Part shown: positions 5,102 through 36,137 of the stretch, one piece after another
Position numbering within the stretch: the first letter of the stretch is position 1
Layout of the letters: every line of letters begins with the position of its first letter
Source of the DNA: a virus
Strand: one strand, 5' to 3'
UHGV virus genome: UHGV-0051534
DNA: 37,595 bases
Program-made: the position numbers and the translations under genes
Notes under the pieces: generated by a model
The model's input: the letters and a program-made list of their open reading frames with translations, nothing else
The model's database searches: none
Told to the model about the DNA's origin: nothing

Positions 5102-5917
5102 ATGAGCAGACATGCAACAGATTGGGCCTGGGAGACAGATCCAGGTAGCTCATCATTAAAGCTCATACTGCTCTCGATGGCTGACAGAGCCGATGAATAT
5201 AACCTCTGCTACCCCAGCATAGAACGCCTCGTTAAAGACACTTGCCTGAATAAAAAAACCGTGCAGGCCGGGCTTATATCGCTCATGAAAATGGGGCTTA
5301 TTTCAGATACCGGAGAGAGAAAGGGAGCGACAAAAAGAGTGCGGGTTTTCTCTCTTAATATAACCAAAAACGGGAACATTAAAGGCAACCGGGAGGGGGG
5401 CAATGAACCCGAAAACGGGAATATACCCGAAAACGGGAATATACCCAAAAACGGGATGTTGAATGATCCCAAAAACGGGATGTTGAATGATCCCAAAAAC
5501 GGGATCCAGAACCAGTCATATAACCAGTCATTTAACCAAGAGAGGGAGAGCAGGACAAAAAGCGGGGATTCTGTGCCTCATGACCCCGGAGCAAACAACG
5601 CCGTGATGAATAACTTTGTTCCTCCTGGTGGGCCAGGGCAATTAGGCAAATTTGTCATGCATGAACAATGGCAGCCATCAGATGACTTTCTTCGGAAAAG
5701 CTCATTGCAGGGGATCTACCTGGACAGTCTGCCAACGGCACAGGAACTTGCAGAGTTCAGAATTTACTGGATGGCTGAGGGTAAGGCATACCATCAGGCA
5801 CAGTGGGAGCAGAAGCTGGCAAGGCGGCTGCAGATTAGCAGACAGAAGCAATCAACATTACCTGATAACAACGTTCCGCACTGGAACAGCCCTGAAGCAT
5901 GGGAGGATTTCTTGTGA
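5102..5917 (+). CDS. replication initiator, lambda O-like
   Basis: 271 aa; GGAG RBS; N-terminal LKLILLSMADRADEYNLCYPSIERLVKDTCLNKKTVQAGLISLMKMGLIS resembles the O-protein DNA-binding domain; contains in-frame tandem repeats; directly precedes a lambda P homologue. Confidence 0.7.
   Translation: MSRHATDWAWETDPGSSSLKLILLSMADRADEYNLCYPSIERLVKDTCLNKKTVQAGLISLMKMGLISDTGERKGATKRVRVFSLNITKNGNIKGNREGGNEPENGNIPENGNIPKNGMLNDPKNGMLNDPKNGIQNQSYNQSFNQERESRTKSGDSVPHDPGANNAVMNNFVPPGGPGQLGKFVMHEQWQPSDDFLRKSSLQGIYLDSLPTAQELAEFRIYWMAEGKAYHQAQWEQKLARRLQISRQKQSTLPDNNVPHWNSPEAWEDFL
5363..5510 (+). repeat. iteron array inside the O-like gene, probable replication origin
   Basis: Direct repeats with core CCC(G/A)AAAACGGGA: 2 x 18 bp (5408-5425, 5426-5443), 2 x 24 bp (5444-5467, 5468-5491), degenerate copies at 5363-5380 and 5492-5510; encode PENGNI/PKNGMLND repeats; followed by a moderately AT-rich stretch. 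Confidence 0.65.
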
Positions 5918-6736: not shown

Positions 6737-6813
6737 TTACCTGTTAGGTAATAAAATATTCTAAAATCTATTGATTTCGTGTCTTATGTGGTTTTTAATT
6801 ACCTCAGAGGTAA
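6737..6813. promoter_or_regulatory. two operator-like inverted repeats upstream of the DUF1064-like gene
   Basis: TTACC-TGTTA-GGTAA (6737-6751) and TTACC-TCAGA-GGTAA (6799-6813); the second abuts the ATG at 6817. Confidence 0.45.
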
Positions 6814-9631: not shown

Positions 9632-9981
9632 TGGACTATTCACAGTTAAGTGATTTTGAAATTAACAGAATGGTAGGAGACATAATTTTTAAAGGCCTTT
9701 GGGCGTGTAAACCGGAAACATCAGGGAATAACACCAACAAATGGTATTACGGAAATACTGATACAACTTTTGAGCCATTAAACCCTTTACCTGACTACTG
9801 CAATAATCCATCGGATGCATGGCCTATTATTGTTGATAATAAAATCAGTCTAACCTGCCACCAATCTCGCGGTGAGTGGTCAGCTGTTTTTAATGCCGAG
9901 AACATTTGCTTTCATGCGAATAATCCACTCCGAGCCGCCATGATTGTATTTCTCATGATGCAGGAAAATCAGAATGGCTAA
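9628..9981 (+). CDS. hypothetical protein
   Basis: 117 aa; ATGA overlap with upstream ORF; no recognised motif. Confidence 0.45.
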   Translation: MMDYSQLSDFEINRMVGDIIFKGLWACKPETSGNNTNKWYYGNTDTTFEPLNPLPDYCNNPSDAWPIIVDNKISLTCHQSRGEWSAVFNAENICFHANNPLRAAMIVFLMMQENQNG

Positions 9982-10312
9982 ATCAGCATCAGAGCGCAAA
10001 GCCGCTCAGAGAGCCAGACAAGCTGCATCTGGTGTGCGTAAGCTGGAAATTGTGCTTGATGCTCAGGAAATTGAAATGCTGGAGCGTAACTGTGCCACGC
10101 GTCGCCCCGGGCGTGCGCCTTACGAATTTGGGGAGTATATAGCGTTACTGATCCGCCAGGATGATGCACGCGTGCGCGGGCGTATAAAATCGATTAGCAG
10201 AAAACGTTGCGGTAAGTGCGGCGAGAAAGTTCCCGTTAATTCATGCCCGTGTAATGGTGACTCGCAATGCTGGGTGACTAAAGGCTGGCATGAAACTAAA
10301 TTAATAGTGTGA
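9974..10312 (+). CDS. putative DNA-binding protein with C-terminal Cys cluster; candidate late-gene regulator
   Basis: 112 aa; basic N-terminus (ERKAAQRARQAASGVRKLEIVLDAQEIEMLE) plus CGKCGEKVPVNSCPCNGDSQC; last gene before the terminator-guarded late operon; stop codon lies inside the 12-bp palindrome. Confidence 0.45.
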   Translation: MAKSASERKAAQRARQAASGVRKLEIVLDAQEIEMLERNCATRRPGRAPYEFGEYIALLIRQDDARVRGRIKSISRKRCGKCGEKVPVNSCPCNGDSQCWVTKGWHETKLIV

Positions 10313-10320
10313 CATGTCAC
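10309..10320. repeat. perfect 12-bp palindrome GTGACATGTCAC, copy 1
   Basis: Read directly; overlaps the TGA stop of the upstream gene; identical copy at 30539-30550. Confidence 0.8.
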
Positions 10321-10352
10321 GAGTAGATTATGCATGATGAATTTGATGGGTT

Positions 10353-10378
10353 TTGAATACTGCCGCCAACTATGGCGG
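10353..10378 (+). terminator. rho-independent terminator immediately upstream of terminase genes
   Basis: Hairpin GCCGCCA-ACT-TGGCGGC followed by TTTATTTT. Confidence 0.55.
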
Positions 10379-10398
10379 CTTTATTTTGCATGGTACTA

Positions 10399-10431
10399 TT
10401 ACCACAACGGTAACAATTACCACGGTGGTTA
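10399..10431. promoter_or_regulatory. two operator-like inverted repeats before terS
   Basis: TTACC-ACAAC-GGTAA (10399-10413) and TTACC-ACGGT-GGTTA (10417-10431); the second abuts the terS ATG. Confidence 0.4.
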
Positions 10432-11027
10432 TGATGCCTGCTGAACCTAAAACCTATAAACGCAAATCAACGCAATTTAAGCCACTAACCGCAATGCAGG
10501 AGGCTTATTGCCAGTCATACATCAAAACGCCTGAAAACCAGACTCAGGCAGCGATTAACGCAGGATTCTCCCCAAATACAGCGGCAGTTAAAGCCAGTGT
10601 CATGATGCGCGATGAACGCATTCAAAAACGGATTGCCGAGTTGATGGAGGAGCGCAACAAACGAATGCGCGTCAGTGCCGATTACGTTCTCATGCGCCTG
10701 GTGGAGATCGACCAGATGGACGTGATTGATATCCTCAACGACGATGGGAGCCTTAAGCCAATCCGCGAGTGGCCGAAAATCTGGCGCACTACGCTTAGTG
10801 GCTTTGATCTGTCATCGACCATCATGAACATGAACGAGGATTCGATAGAGACAATCCTCAAAAAAATTAAATGGCCTGACAAGGTGAAGAACCTCGAACT
10901 GATTGGTAAGCACGTCGACGTCAACGCATTCAAAGAACGCCTGGATGTTAATGTGAATGTGACAATTGCTGATCGCATAGCGGCAGCCAGGAAGCGACTC
11001 AAAGAACGTCAGGATGGTAATCAGTGA
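10431..11027 (+). CDS. terS: terminase small subunit
   Basis: 198 aa from ATG 10431; KSTQFKPLTAMQEAYCQSYIKTPENQTQAAINAGFSPNTAAVKAS matches the HTH-type small terminase pattern; directly precedes the large subunit. Confidence 0.8.
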   Translation: MMPAEPKTYKRKSTQFKPLTAMQEAYCQSYIKTPENQTQAAINAGFSPNTAAVKASVMMRDERIQKRIAELMEERNKRMRVSADYVLMRLVEIDQMDVIDILNDDGSLKPIREWPKIWRTTLSGFDLSSTIMNMNEDSIETILKKIKWPDKVKNLELIGKHVDVNAFKERLDVNVNVTIADRIAAARKRLKERQDGNQ

Positions 11028-12496: not shown

Positions 12497-13345
12497 TTAC
12501 TTTTGTGTTTTTGATTTTCTTTGATGGGTGGAATTTAAACCACCATTTATATTTACTAGAGGATTATTCAATAATGTACTGATTTCTGGATTGTTAATTC
12601 CAGTAACGCCAAGTTTCTTTACGGACTCATTAAGGTCTTGTAATGATTTTAGACCTACAAACCCATTAGCAATTGTATTATTTGTTGCCAAAGGAATGTT
12701 TTTCTTATAGGACTCATATTCGTTTTTTAAATTTTTGTGGGCTTTTTCTAGATTTTCTAGTTTAGATGTTGTTTCATGAATAACCTTAGATAATTCTAAA
12801 ATACGAGCTTGTGCTGCGCGCAGTTCTGTCTCCCTCTCTTTCAATTCAGATGTGAGTTGTCCCATTCTGTCTTTTGAAAGAATTATTTCCTCTTTCATGT
12901 CTTGAATGTTTTTTTCAGCGCCTGTTTTTACTTTTTCGTAAGTAATGTCTTTTTTAGCCAGCAATCTCTGTAGCCGTGTTTCACGTTGTATTTTTCTTGC
13001 CTTCCGGTGATTTTCGATTGAGTCATTATTATCAAGAGGCTTTGCTTGCCATACGTTAATGATATTGTTTACCCATGGTAATAGGCAGCAGATAGTAATT
13101 ACAGATAAGCATGGATAAAACATAACAGTTTTCCATGTGCTGTTATCTGAGATGTATGAAATTTTATCTATTATATTTGATTTGCTAAAAAATAGATAAA
13201 GAAGTGATTTCCAGTTGAAGGCGCACCAGGACATAACAAAAGCACCTAGCACAGGGTTTTTAGCTCGATGCACGGCAGTATTGGCAGTAGATAAAAACAG
13301 CTCTTTGAACGATTCGAACATACTAATTACCTTAAAGTTTTTCAT
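12497..13345 (-). CDS. moron: membrane-anchored coiled-coil protein of unknown function (candidate exclusion/abortive-infection protein)
   Basis: About 33% GC against about 50% in flanks; opposite strand inside the late operon; two predicted TM helices (VLGAFVMSWCAFNWKSLLYLFF, VMFYPCLSVITICCLLPWVNNII) then a long coiled coil; start ATG 13345 or more likely ATG 13321 (AAGG RBS, 275 aa). Confidence 0.6.
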   Translation of the reverse strand: MKNFKVISMFESFKELFLSTANTAVHRAKNPVLGAFVMSWCAFNWKSLLYLFFSKSNIIDKISYISDNSTWKTVMFYPCLSVITICCLLPWVNNIINVWQAKPLDNNDSIENHRKARKIQRETRLQRLLAKKDITYEKVKTGAEKNIQDMKEEIILSKDRMGQLTSELKERETELRAAQARILELSKVIHETTSKLENLEKAHKNLKNEYESYKKNIPLATNNTIANGFVGLKSLQDLNESVKKLGVTGINNPEISTLLNNPLVNINGGLNSTHQRKSKTQK

Positions 13346-13346
13346 G

Positions 13347-13375
13347 ATTATACCTTTAAGGTAATTTGTGGTCAT
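13347..13375 (-). promoter_or_regulatory. candidate promoter of the moron with overlapping operator-like site
   Basis: Minus-strand consensus -10 TATAAT (forward 13347-13352) with ATGACC 17 bp upstream; ATACC-TTTAA-GGTAA (13350-13364) overlaps it. Confidence 0.4.
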
Positions 13376-13379
13376 CAGG

Positions 13380-13404
13380 CAAAAAAATGCCCGGCGAACC
13401 GGGC
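13380..13404 (-). terminator. rho-independent terminator between tRNA and moron
   Basis: Minus-strand hairpin GCCCGG-TTCG-CCGGGC followed by ATTTTTTT. Confidence 0.55.
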
Positions 13405-13482
13405 GAACTGGAAGCAATGAGTTATGCCTTCCGTGGCTGTACGGGTTTACAGCATGAAGTCATCGCAATGGCGTCCTGCTGT

Positions 13483-13567: not shown

Positions 13568-13644
13568 TGGCGCGGCATGCAGGATTCGAACCTGCGACCA
13601 ACCGCTTAGAAGGCGGTTGCTCTGTCCAACTGAGCTAATGCCAC
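13568..13644 (-). tRNA. tRNA-Arg (anticodon UCU)
   Basis: 77-nt cloverleaf folded by hand: acceptor GTGGCAT/ATGCCGC (one G-U pair), D-arm GCTC-AGTTGGACA-GAGC, anticodon arm ACCGC-CTTCTAA-GCGGT, T-arm GCAGG-TTCGAAT-CCTGC, discriminator G, encoded CCA. Confidence 0.85.
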
Positions 13645-15972: not shown

Positions 15973-16265
15973 CAGATTACGAAGATGATCAACTGAAAGA
16001 AGAAAACGCCAGTAAGCAACGTGACATGGCACAGCGTGAAATTGATGACATTCGCTTTGTCATGAGCAGTGAACAGGGGCGTCGCGTTGTCTGGTCTGTG
16101 CTGGAGAAAGGCCGGGTGTTTTCCGCTATCTCACCGATGGACGCTATGGCAATGGCATTTAATGAGGGGCAACGCAATCTGGCGCTGGAACTGTTTCAGC
16201 GCGTTATGGCGCATTGCCCTGAACAGTATTTGAAGATGGCCAAAGAGGCCAGTGAACAGGAGTGA
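15969..16265 (+). CDS. hypothetical head-assembly protein
   Basis: 98 aa acidic ORF coupled to the portal stop. Confidence 0.45.
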   Translation: MTDYEDDQLKEENASKQRDMAQREIDDIRFVMSSEQGRRVVWSVLEKGRVFSAISPMDAMAMAFNEGQRNLALELFQRVMAHCPEQYLKMAKEASEQE

Positions 16266-30245: not shown

Positions 30246-30542
30246 ATGCAAGCTATAGGATTCATTGTTTATATCGTCGTTGGTCTTTTTCAGTTGGCAG
30301 CAATTATGGCTGGGCTTGAATCATGGTGGGGATTGCACTGGATAATTGCAGCCCCCATTGCTTTCATCGTGAGCTATATTCCATTTGTTGGAGCGATTGT
30401 TGGTATGGTTGGCGCTGTGGATGTATGGCGGTGGGAGTGGTGGCAGGCTGGCCTTCTCTTCTTTGGTGGGATCATCTTTGCTATTGTCTGCGGTGGAATG
30501 TCATCATTTTTCGAATGGCTATCATTCAGAAAAAGAGCGTGA
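30246..30542 (+). CDS. small integral membrane protein (98 aa)
   Basis: AGGTGA RBS; three to four hydrophobic segments, Trp-rich; stop codon lies inside palindrome copy 2. Confidence 0.5.
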   Translation: MQAIGFIVYIVVGLFQLAAIMAGLESWWGLHWIIAAPIAFIVSYIPFVGAIVGMVGAVDVWRWEWWQAGLLFFGGIIFAIVCGGMSSFFEWLSFRKRA

Positions 30543-30550
30543 CATGTCAC
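30539..30550. repeat. perfect 12-bp palindrome GTGACATGTCAC, copy 2
   Basis: Identical to 10309-10320; overlaps an upstream TGA stop in the same register and is directly followed by a terminator. Confidence 0.8.
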
Positions 30551-30576
30551 AGGCCGCTTTCGCGGCCTTGTTTTTA
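30551..30576 (+). terminator. rho-independent terminator
   Basis: Hairpin AGGCCGC-TTTC-GCGGCCT followed by TGTTTTT. Confidence 0.6.
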
Positions 30577-31583: not shown

Positions 31584-32279
31584 TCAGAAGAACCCTGCCT
31601 TGTCGTTGATGTACTCCGCGTGCGTCTGGATATCACGCAGGCATTTGCTCACACCAACGATGTAACAGAACATGGTGGTCAGCTCCGCCGCCGCGCCCGA
31701 TACATCGTGCCCGTCTTCCTGCAACTGGTTTAGCAGATTCATCAGCAGTGAGTTCTCCGTCAGGCCGAGAACACCTGACGGCGAATGAATCAGACTGCGG
31801 TAGCCGGGCTTCAGTGGGGCGCTGTAGGTTTTGTTCTCTATCTTCATTGCTTGCATTACTGCTGACGCCGTGGCGTTGGCTACCTGGTCGGCAACCATCT
31901 TTATGCGTTCTTCCTGCGGGAGCGAGTTTTTAATGTAACTTCCGGTGCGGCGGATCTGAGGAAGAACCTCACCTGTAACCCATTTACGAAAGCGGTAGGG
32001 GATAGTGCCTGGTGTCACCGCATCGCGGCAGCGGAGGATCAGTGTGTAGAGGCCTGACTCGGAGATGATGATCGATTCTTGCTCACCGCCAGGGGTGTCG
32101 GTTGAAGCGACGCCCTTCTCATCATCATCAAGTTTTCGAACAGCATCTCGATGGTTTGCTATGCCTATAGCCCGACAAACATCTGAAGCGATAAACCATG
32201 GCTCACCATTAATGACGATTACTCGTATATCGGCTTGGGATTCGAAAGAAAAAATGGACGTGCTTTTTGTAGCTGTCAT
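31584..32279 (-). CDS. ant: antirepressor, Bro-N domain family
   Basis: 231 aa; N-terminal FSFESQADIRVIVINGEPWFIASDVCRAIGIANHRDAVRKL is a Bro-N/Ant-like motif; C-terminal domain is paralogous to the upstream small protein. Confidence 0.75.
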   Translation of the reverse strand: MTATKSTSIFSFESQADIRVIVINGEPWFIASDVCRAIGIANHRDAVRKLDDDEKGVASTDTPGGEQESIIISESGLYTLILRCRDAVTPGTIPYRFRKWVTGEVLPQIRRTGSYIKNSLPQEERIKMVADQVANATASAVMQAMKIENKTYSAPLKPGYRSLIHSPSGVLGLTENSLLMNLLNQLQEDGHDVSGAAAELTTMFCYIVGVSKCLRDIQTHAEYINDKAGFF

Positions 32280-32435
32280 AGTGGTTACCTTTTAGTCTGG
32301 TTAATCACCACTACCGACGCCAATCGGTTGGTGGTGAACTGTGCAGGGTTGGCGTAACCGGCTAAAAGGACCCGGCGCACCTTTCGGTGCCCCCACACAG
32401 CCCACCATAATACGAATGTGGCCGTGCTATACGCA

Positions 32436-32456
32436 TAAAAAAACCGCTTGCGCGGT
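32436..32456 (-). terminator. intrinsic terminator/attenuator in the antirepressor leader
   Basis: Minus-strand hairpin ACCGC-GCAA-GCGGT followed by TTTTTTT. Confidence 0.45.
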
Positions 32457-32548
32457 GAATGCGCCTTTTAGTAATCCGGGACGCCAATCCCGGCACTGGA
32501 TTTTGCCAGTGCCTGATTACTATGGCACAAGAGGAGTGCGATGTAAAT

Positions 32549-35530: not shown

Positions 35531-35732
35531 CTGCTACCGCGCCATTAAATGGTGCGGTATTCAACCTGCTCTTCACTGTTTGTTTCTTCAGAGTCATGTA
35601 AAAGGTGAGCTTTATTCTCGGCATGAAAAACAGGGAATTGACGATGTTAAAGTAACAAAAAACCATAAATGGTTTATTATGCGTAATGCTTTACTGTTCA
35701 GGAGGTTGTTATGCATATAAACGGTGGAAAAC

Positions 35733-36137
35733 ATGTCAGCTCAACTAACCAGTGAAACTTTAAATCAGTGGCTTAGCATGAGTTCTCTGGCGGCGGTGAT
35801 AGCAGGAGTTCCTCCTGAGGTTGCTTTGGGTGCTTTGGCTGGAGCGGTAATTTTTGTTACCTCTGCAGTAGAGTACCCCATCCGTCGCCGGGTGCTCCTG
35901 TCGATGCTCAGCTTTCTTTGCGGCCTTCTCTTTTACAAACCAGCAGCATCAATTCTTATCGGCATAGCCAGCCTGATCCCTACCATCACGCAGGACTCTT
36001 TTGAAAAAGGGATTGTTTTCTCTGCAGGCGCATTCGTGTCAGCAATTGTCGCTGTGCGTATTGGTATATGGCTCTATCACCGTTCCGATAATCCACGCGA
36101 GTTAATTCCGGGGAGAAAAGACGATGGTAACGCATGA
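35733..36137 (+). CDS. putative holin / multi-TM lysis membrane protein
   Basis: 135 aa from ATG 35733; three to four hydrophobic helices and charged C-terminus; immediately upstream of holin-like and endolysin genes. Confidence 0.45.
   Translation: MSAQLTSETLNQWLSMSSLAAVIAGVPPEVALGALAGAVIFVTSAVEYPIRRRVLLSMLSFLCGLLFYKPAASILIGIASLIPTITQDSFEKGIVFSAGAFVSAIVAVRIGIWLYHRSDNPRELIPGRKDDGNA

Follow-up and report, generated by a model that had tools for sequence, protein, structure and literature searches.

A palindrome spanning the stop codon of a ribbon-helix-helix protein gene: a candidate operator-like site in epsilon15-like and other temperate phages

Among described pairs of a DNA-binding protein and a short inverted repeat, MatP/matS is one of the closest to the locus analysed here, and the matS consensus is the 13-bp sequence GTGAC[AG]N[TC]GTCAC (PMC3603311, PMC8669397). 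The phage palindrome carries identical half-sites in the same inverted arrangement (GTGAC...GTCAC). Like matS, it is a short dyad with a few scattered copies, found in coding as well as non-coding sequence and not at promoters. It differs in its spacer, which is 2 bp and not 3, and in its overall length of 12 or 14 bp as opposed to 13. The protein proposed below as its binder differs from MatP in lacking the N-terminal four-helix bundle and the coiled coil, in having a basic N-terminal helix and a C-terminal Cys cluster, in being encoded by the phage with one site fused to its own gene, and in occurring also in a Pseudomonas element.

Other described systems, among them those of ribbon-helix-helix (RHH) proteins, also bear comparison. 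The operators of P22 Arc and Mnt (immI), of the RHH repressors CopG, MetJ and AmrZ and of the TacA and ParD antitoxins overlap the promoters that are controlled, usually their own, whereas the phage site is located at the 3' end of the gene over the stop codon, with other copies at operon ends or inside ORFs, and the phage protein has an extra Cys-cluster domain and no Pfam membership. ParG, ParR and omega provide a parallel in that an RHH binder is encoded beside a cis site that must be inherited with it, and several carriers of the phage pair are plasmid-prophages with ParA-type genes (N15, phiKO2, Kpn74, Vibrio K303 and a Pseudomonas contig). However, the phage sites are single dyads and not repeat arrays, the gene has no dedicated partner ATPase beside it, and integrating phages (epsilon15-like, P2-like, Mu-like and ZF40) carry the pair just as commonly. 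Lambda Q/qut shares with the present genus the order of regulator gene, DNA site, terminator and late genes, but the phage site has no conserved promoter, the protein is unlike any Q family and some sites have neither a promoter nor a late gene after them. To our knowledge, none of the known host regulator sites (CRP, FNR, LexA and LacI-type) fits the spacing of the palindrome.

The DNA under study, hereafter the window, is the whole stretch of 37,595 nucleotides of UHGV virus genome UHGV-0051534 and is assigned here to the epsilon15/phiV10-like temperate podophages of the genus Uetakevirus. An earlier note, made from the letters of this DNA, had pointed to a repeated 12-bp palindrome over two stop codons and had considered a dimeric regulator site, a processing signal or a recombination site as its role. 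It did not see the link to the product of the upstream gene, the free central dinucleotide or the resemblance to matS.

The palindrome and its surroundings in the window

The exact 12-mer GTGACATGTCAC was found exactly twice in the window (Table 1), and the TGA codon of the upstream ORF occupies palindrome positions 2–4 in both copies, which confirms the repetition and the common register that had been described. Both of these ORFs are real conserved phage genes, belonging to PHROG 536 (copy 1) and PHROG 3075 (copy 2). The chance of such a repetition had been put far below 0.01, an estimate that proved too low: Markov simulations produced a repeated 12-bp palindrome in 3 of 300 sequences (order-1) and 7 of 300 (order-3), corresponding to a nominal value of about 1–2% within the window once post-hoc choice is allowed for. 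The window holds eight palindromic 12-mers, matching expectation, and one-mismatch matches to the palindrome occur near chance level. The one-mismatch variant at 16021 is kept in TL-2011b and also adjoins an exact site in Yersinia phage 42.18. Considered within the window alone, the palindrome is only nominally significant. A string that had been called related to it, ACATGTCA at 35731–35738 over the start of a holin-like gene, is a chance match, being an 8-mer without a GTGAC half-site for which about one occurrence is expected.

Table 1. Positions of the palindrome and associated features in the window and in other phages
Genome or lineage	Feature	Position	Strand	Description
Window	gp49-family gene	9974..10312	+	112 aa, RHH and Cys cluster; epsilon15 gp49 / N15 gene 46, PHROG 536; proposed palindrome binder
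Window	palindrome copy 1	10309..10320	.	T-GTGACATGTCAC-G; TGA stop 10310-10312 of gp49-family gene inside
Window	intrinsic terminator	10362..10387	+	stem 10362-10379 (GCCGCCAACTATGGCGGC), then TTTATTTT; ends early-right operon, 41 nt past copy 1
Window	one-mismatch copy	16021..16032	.	C-GTGACATGGCAC-A; within structural gene; status uncertain
Window	small variable gene	30246..30542	+	98 aa, PHROG 3075; stop in copy 2
Window	palindrome copy 2	30539..30550	.	C-GTGACATGTCAC-A; holds TGA (30540-30542) of ORF 30246-30542
Window	intrinsic terminator	30551..30575	+	stem 30551-30568 (AGGCCGCTTTCGCGGCCT), then TGTTTTT; directly after copy 2
epsilon15	3 sites	39612; 19517; 2142		gp49 stop; gp18 stop, terminator directly after; between terL and convergent gp50
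SPN1S	3 sites	38653; 19662; 2174
Tyrion	3 sites	41755; 20377; 2702
TL-2011b	2 sites	11500; 32282
Klebsiella prophage	1 site	20279
ZF40	3 sites			one 2 nt past homologue's stop; sites in gp08 and gp12 ORFs
P2-like Yersinia phage	1 exact site			adjacent copy with one mismatch
phiKO2, Kpn74, N15	2, 4 and 3 sites			centre TG/CA; homologue's stop embedded in all three phages
Vibrio phage K303	3 sites			site 19 nt before start codons
Mu-like prophage; another prophage (L328)	2 and 3 sites			one site within homologue's own coding region
Pseudomonas element, 63% GC	2 sites			stop embedded in same register

At both copies a G+C-rich hairpin followed by a T-run lies 3' of the stop codon, as in intrinsic terminators, and the palindrome itself is outside the hairpin. 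The terminator said to be adjacent to each copy does follow copy 2 directly, while the gap after copy 1 measures 41 nt and not about 35. The first of the two elements is annotated as a rho-independent terminator in epsilon15; the second is annotated as a terminator in phiV10 and separates the late operon (+) from the convergent c4/antirepressor operon (-). Copy 2 thus abuts the terminator that closes the late structural operon, and it faces a convergent minus-strand operon that opens with isrK and C4-antisense RNA genes and a Bro-N antirepressor gene. The C4 antisense RNA at 32327–32412 (-) and the Hfq-binding RNA isrK at 32437–32512 (-) scored 77.7 and 77.9 bits, above the Rfam gathering score, and are positioned just upstream of the Bro-N gene at 31584–32279 (-). 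This region appears to be an antirepressor control module similar to immI of P1/P7, and its operon extends into the terminator of copy 2.

The gene at 9974–10312 is the counterpart of epsilon15 gp49 and phiV10 p55; it closes the early-right operon and terS is the next gene. The longest terS ORF, which starts at TTG 10353 as annotated in phiV10, would span the early-operon terminator as well as repressor sites, and the real terS start is probably ATG 10434, as annotated in TL-2011b. These repressor sites belong to a second dispersed dyad, ATTACC-N5-GGTAAT, which has 15 matches with up to two mismatches in the window against 1.2 expected (including 10398–10414, 10416–10432, 3631, 3693, 4405, 4790, 6736, 6798, 13349, 13966, 31497, 32548 and 32928) and is annotated as 'repressor' binding sites in epsilon15. 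Two copies are located between the copy-1 terminator and terS, where they overlap an extended -10-like TGgTACTAT at 10391–10399, and the late operons therefore appear to be directly repressor-controlled. The palindrome was accordingly rejected as the operator of the prophage repressor, that operator being this other motif.

Further features of the window include a tRNA-Arg gene (anticodon TCT) at 13568–13644 (-) in the variable segment that separates terL from the structural genes. Its neighbour is a minus-strand cargo ORF at 12497–13417 (306 aa) with weak coiled-coil/SMC-like PADLOC matches. A palindrome located after terL in epsilon15, SPN1S and Tyrion is absent from the window. Additionally, two identical copies of TGGGATCATTCAACATCCCG then TTTTTGGG, 24 bp apart, were observed at 5452–5495 (-) within ORF 5102–5917, and these look like replication-origin iterons inside an initiator gene.

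Conservation of the motif and its association with the gp49-family gene

A search at syntenic positions in related phages, as the earlier note had suggested, found the exact 12-mer at the same positions in epsilon15, SPN1S, Tyrion, TL-2011b and a Klebsiella prophage, within flanks that are only about 77–83% identical, non-homologous or replaced. In phiV10, copy 2 and its terminator are intact despite a different upstream gene, and copy 1 has one substitution. The phiV10 record opens inside copy 1 only through the authors' cut after the stop of the last gene, and a physical genome end or a cos/pac site was rejected on this ground. Relatives carry unrelated genes in place of ORF 30246–30542, and in IMG/VR contigs the core formed by copy 2 and its terminator has five or more different contexts upstream and two or more downstream. 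At the post-terL palindrome (L243–L321, L238/L239), five unrelated families of minus-strand cargo genes all stop exactly 4 nt away, a fixed distance that none of the tests run accounted for.

The full motif is a 14-bp dyad, Y-GTGAC-N2-GTCAC-R. Across 1.3 Mb of related loci, chosen by gp49 protein homology alone, we counted 126 GTGAC-N2-GTCAC sites as compared to none for nine control motifs (spacers N0, N1, N3, N4 and N6, swapped half-sites and three others). This comparison places the reality of the palindrome beyond doubt, as in-window statistics alone do not, and we regard the palindrome as a real feature under strong selection. The half-sites are invariant in sequence across lineages, the two central nucleotides are free (AT, AC, CA, CG, AG and GC), and the flanking base is Y/R, with the pyrimidine on the 5' side, at 71 of the 72 half-sites of the unbiased set. 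Such a combination of invariant half-sites, free centre and Y/R flanks is the signature of protein read-out and not of RNA pairing; no compensatory change was seen in the half-sites across 77 independent contexts.

The motif is tied to the gp49-family gene rather than to what follows it. Of 67 distinct contexts 3' of this gene, 48 have the TGA codon inside the motif, irrespective of the DNA downstream, and another eight have a site within 5–228 nt. The DNA beyond the gene varies, beginning with terS, with a umuD-like gene with an SOS box or with others, so that at least 15 different sequences follow the gp49 copy. In several relatives (L237, 20291–20360; L126, L075, L179 and L185) the umuD-like gene is inserted between the palindrome and terS and is preceded by a near-perfect LexA box, TACTGT-N8-ACAGTA.

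The phage records with gp49-family homologues number 154 and come from Escherichia, Salmonella, Klebsiella, Yersinia, Pectobacterium, Vibrio and Aeromonas. Many of the loci counted are related by descent, and the truly independent lineages number about eleven, not hundreds. Ten other gene-bearing phage lineages have between one and four exact sites each, nine of them with at least two, and an eleventh has a variant twice; the distant homologues that bear sites are 29–67% identical and reside in unrelated phage types. In an Aeromonas phage with a homologue, no exact site was present in 23 kb and the asymmetric variant GTGACCGGACAC occurred twice, once 13 nt upstream of the homologue. Lambda and P2, both without a gp49-family gene, have no motif sites. 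Judged from these genomes, the association appears exclusive to the gp49-family gene, and every lineage but one of those fetched carries an exact site.

Within this phage genus every copy is positioned between a stop codon and an intrinsic terminator, at 0–41 nt, whereas sites outside the genus lie inside ORFs (N15 repA, ZF40 gp08 and gp12) or just upstream of start codons. Terminator adjacency is a property of this genus and is not general to the system, and it may simply reflect where a compact genome can house a 14-bp dyad. A site in N15 (L324, 28550) and in Kpn74 (L323, 8227) belongs to the control region that precedes the antirepressor (antA-C) operon and is followed in both phages, 4 nt later on the transcribed strand, by a TAAAAT -10-like hexamer. 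This can be interpreted as possible promoter control by the gp49-family protein at the N15-type antA-C site.

The 112-aa protein belongs to no family in Pfam or NCBIfam. PHROG 536 carries the label 'transcriptional regulator', and all of its database relatives are 'hypothetical'. At 50% identity the family forms 232 clusters among 1.84 billion proteins, and it occurs in temperate phages of epsilon15-like, N15-like, P2-like, Mu-like, ZF40-type, Vibrio and Pseudomonas groups. Its conserved features are a basic N-terminal stretch (R8, K9 and R13), a hydrophobic strand-like segment, two helices and four cysteines. Three of these (C79, C82 and C99) show no or almost no variation in either alignment, and the fourth, C91, does not vary in the closer one. 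The high-confidence model of the protein is that of an RHH DNA binder with a Cys cluster, and it shares with RHH proteins of solved structure an N-terminal strand followed by two helices. A dimer that would insert a two-stranded sheet into the major groove, the RHH mode of binding, is consistent with the dyad symmetry of the motif. MatP–matS was among the best structural matches; no match was significant in a Foldseek search against the PDB. Comparison of the protein with Q families gave no similarity, and a component of anti-phage defence was rejected as PADLOC gave no match.

Possible roles of the site and competing explanations

Overall, the palindrome is most simply the cognate DNA site of the gp49-family RHH protein, because a sequence-conserved dyad co-occurs with an RHH gene and one copy is fused to that gene; we infer the binding itself with a probability of roughly 70%. 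The dimeric regulator site that had been among the first suggestions is thereby upheld in the form of a conserved 14-bp dyad which accompanies, and is fused to, the RHH-protein gene across many lineages. A symmetric dimer of the RHH and zinc-type Cys-cluster protein would bind each copy on double-stranded DNA, and protein and site would form a co-inherited pair that recombination could not separate in mosaic phage genomes, as the site is fused to the stop codon. The fusion makes evolutionary sense because, with recombination at gene boundaries, no other arrangement would ensure that the factor is inherited along with one of its sites. Two narrower candidates were rejected: a class I activator site for the terS promoter, since the spacing of the site from the inferred -10 is not the same in the window as in epsilon15 (a difference of about 18 bp), and the restriction site ACATGT, since the central dinucleotide varies.

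What such binding would achieve is less certain. The copies of the genus lie at the end of the early-right operon before terS, at the end of the late operon facing the antirepressor operon and, in relatives, at a cargo gene convergent with terL, two of these places being convergent junctions. Because each copy closes a transcription unit, with a stop codon on one side and a terminator on the other, a roadblock or boundary is the most economical reading, which we hold as a tentative possibility. The bound protein would limit read-through between modules, and the site at the end of its own gene could provide feedback on that gene and on the genes downstream, so that a gene buried in a long operon could thereby regulate without a promoter of its own. 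Against this, such a site seems superfluous ahead of a good intrinsic terminator, and in other lineages the sites lie within the ORFs named above or, in K303, 19 nt before start codons. Alternatively, the pair may be a phage-borne analogue of MatP/matS, in which the protein binds two to four sites of its own genome, one of them welded to its gene, without promoter control. By this analogy, which we consider doubtful, the protein might mark, bridge, insulate or protect the phage chromosome, might shield replicating phage or plasmid-prophage DNA from SMC-type complexes or other host machinery, or might pair copies, and the matS half-sites would have been re-spaced and so hidden from host MatP.

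The mosaic surroundings of the sites bring forward another explanation, that the palindrome is primarily a recombination or linker sequence, either as microhomology for RecET-type exchange or as a site-specific target for module exchange. Homology to TL-2011b begins exactly at 30538, and the varied contexts of copy 2 with its terminator, the cargo families ending 4 nt from the post-terL copy and the different sequences after the gp49 copy all agree with it. We nevertheless judge it unlikely, given that no recombinase is associated with the sites, that 12 bp is short for homologous exchange, and that some sites are internal to conserved ORFs (N15-type repA and the family gene itself), away from any module boundary. 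A conserved functional island would collect breakpoints at its edges while compaction draws stop codons up to the site. The mosaic pattern is thus expected as a by-product of the preferred reading, a cognate site of the RHH protein, because a conserved 40-bp island in a RecET-encoding phage collects breakpoints, and microhomology from such an island explains the homology breakpoints at the palindrome equally well.

The matS half-sites raise the question of whether a host factor, obviously MatP, binds the sites and the phage engages or evades host chromosome organisation through them. Most named hosts of the family belong to the Enterobacterales, Vibrionales, Aeromonadales and Alteromonadales, and Vibrio phage K303 (L242) has, at 6769, one true 13-mer of the matS consensus (GTGACACCGTCAC, about 0.006 expected in 24 kb) beside its three 12-bp sites. 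However, the spacer is always 2 and never 3: all 126 sites are N2, and N3 sites are absent from the 1.3 Mb and also from the window, even with one mismatch allowed. The proteins differ as well, for true MatP proteins carry both PF06303 (N-terminal) and PF17414 (RHH), whereas the 86 family members have neither, and hhalign of family profiles against E. coli MatP gave probabilities of 0.1–0.7%, that is, no detectable sequence homology; the MatP side was the single E. coli sequence, as its homologue search returned only near-identical E. coli proteins and hence no profile. A host-factor site also does not explain the fusion of the motif to the stop codon of a phage gene. The pair occurs in a Pseudomonas element while MatP is reported only from enteric-type bacteria (PMC7188993), and prophages are reported to avoid matS (Bobay et al., PMC3603311), in a search that the 12-bp version of the site would have escaped. 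Taken together, binding by MatP is very unlikely. The resemblance to matS may be convergent, distantly homologous or coincidental, and, with about a dozen RHH sites known, we put at a few per cent the probability that one of them would match the half-sites in this way.

A role in RNA, whether as a small hairpin or protein-binding element of the 3' UTR that aids or modulates the terminator or as the mark of a processing site, would fit the position of the genus copies between stop codon and terminator, and the spacer between these two is described as important for termination efficiency (PMC4824070). The isolated hairpin, however, has only -1.2 kcal/mol and is no better than shuffled sequences, which together with half-sites that never covary leaves the processing signal proposed in the earlier note unsupported. 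It is the sequence that is conserved and not the pairing, the unpaired Y/R flank included; Rfam has no family at either copy, and in other lineages the sites are away from terminators, which leaves an RNA role highly improbable. Scarcely any probability is given to copy 1 as part of a promoter (GTGACA as the -35) followed by a short leader and terminator in a lambda-Q-like switch of late antitermination with the upstream protein as antiterminator: a scan does find GTGACA-18-CATGAT at 10309–10338, epsilon15 and Tyrion have, in our own reading, GTGACA-17-TAAATT ahead of the same terminator, and the order of regulator gene, site, terminator and late genes resembles Q-qut-tR', but promoter-like matches are at chance level in the window (17 found, 21 expected), the -35/-10 match is absent at copy 2, at the post-terL copy and, in the majority of other lineages, 3' of the gene, terS possesses, past the terminator, a promoter-like region of its own under repressor control, several gene-bearing phages already encode Q, Ogr or Mor regulators, and neither a Q-family match nor a conserved promoter-embedded element was found.

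Significance for the phage family

In the searchable literature, which excludes the epsilon15 genome and MatP–matS structure papers, the 12-mer and five variants were not found in a phage context, and within this literature the protein–site pair appears undescribed. In summary, the best explanation of the palindrome is an operator-like site for an RHH protein of the phage that is as yet uncharacterised, with what would be an unusual fusion of gene and site. This reading assigns a precise 14-bp candidate target and a testable function to PHROG 536, a widespread family annotated as 'hypothetical protein' or 'transcriptional regulator'. A binding site built into the stop codon of its own binder would be an unusual and elegant way to keep a trans factor and a cis site together, and the presence of matS-identical half-sites at another spacing raises the question of whether the phage and host systems are related, convergent or antagonistic. 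The motif may also be useful as a landmark of module boundaries in these prophages and should be considered whenever phiV10-type reporter phages are engineered.
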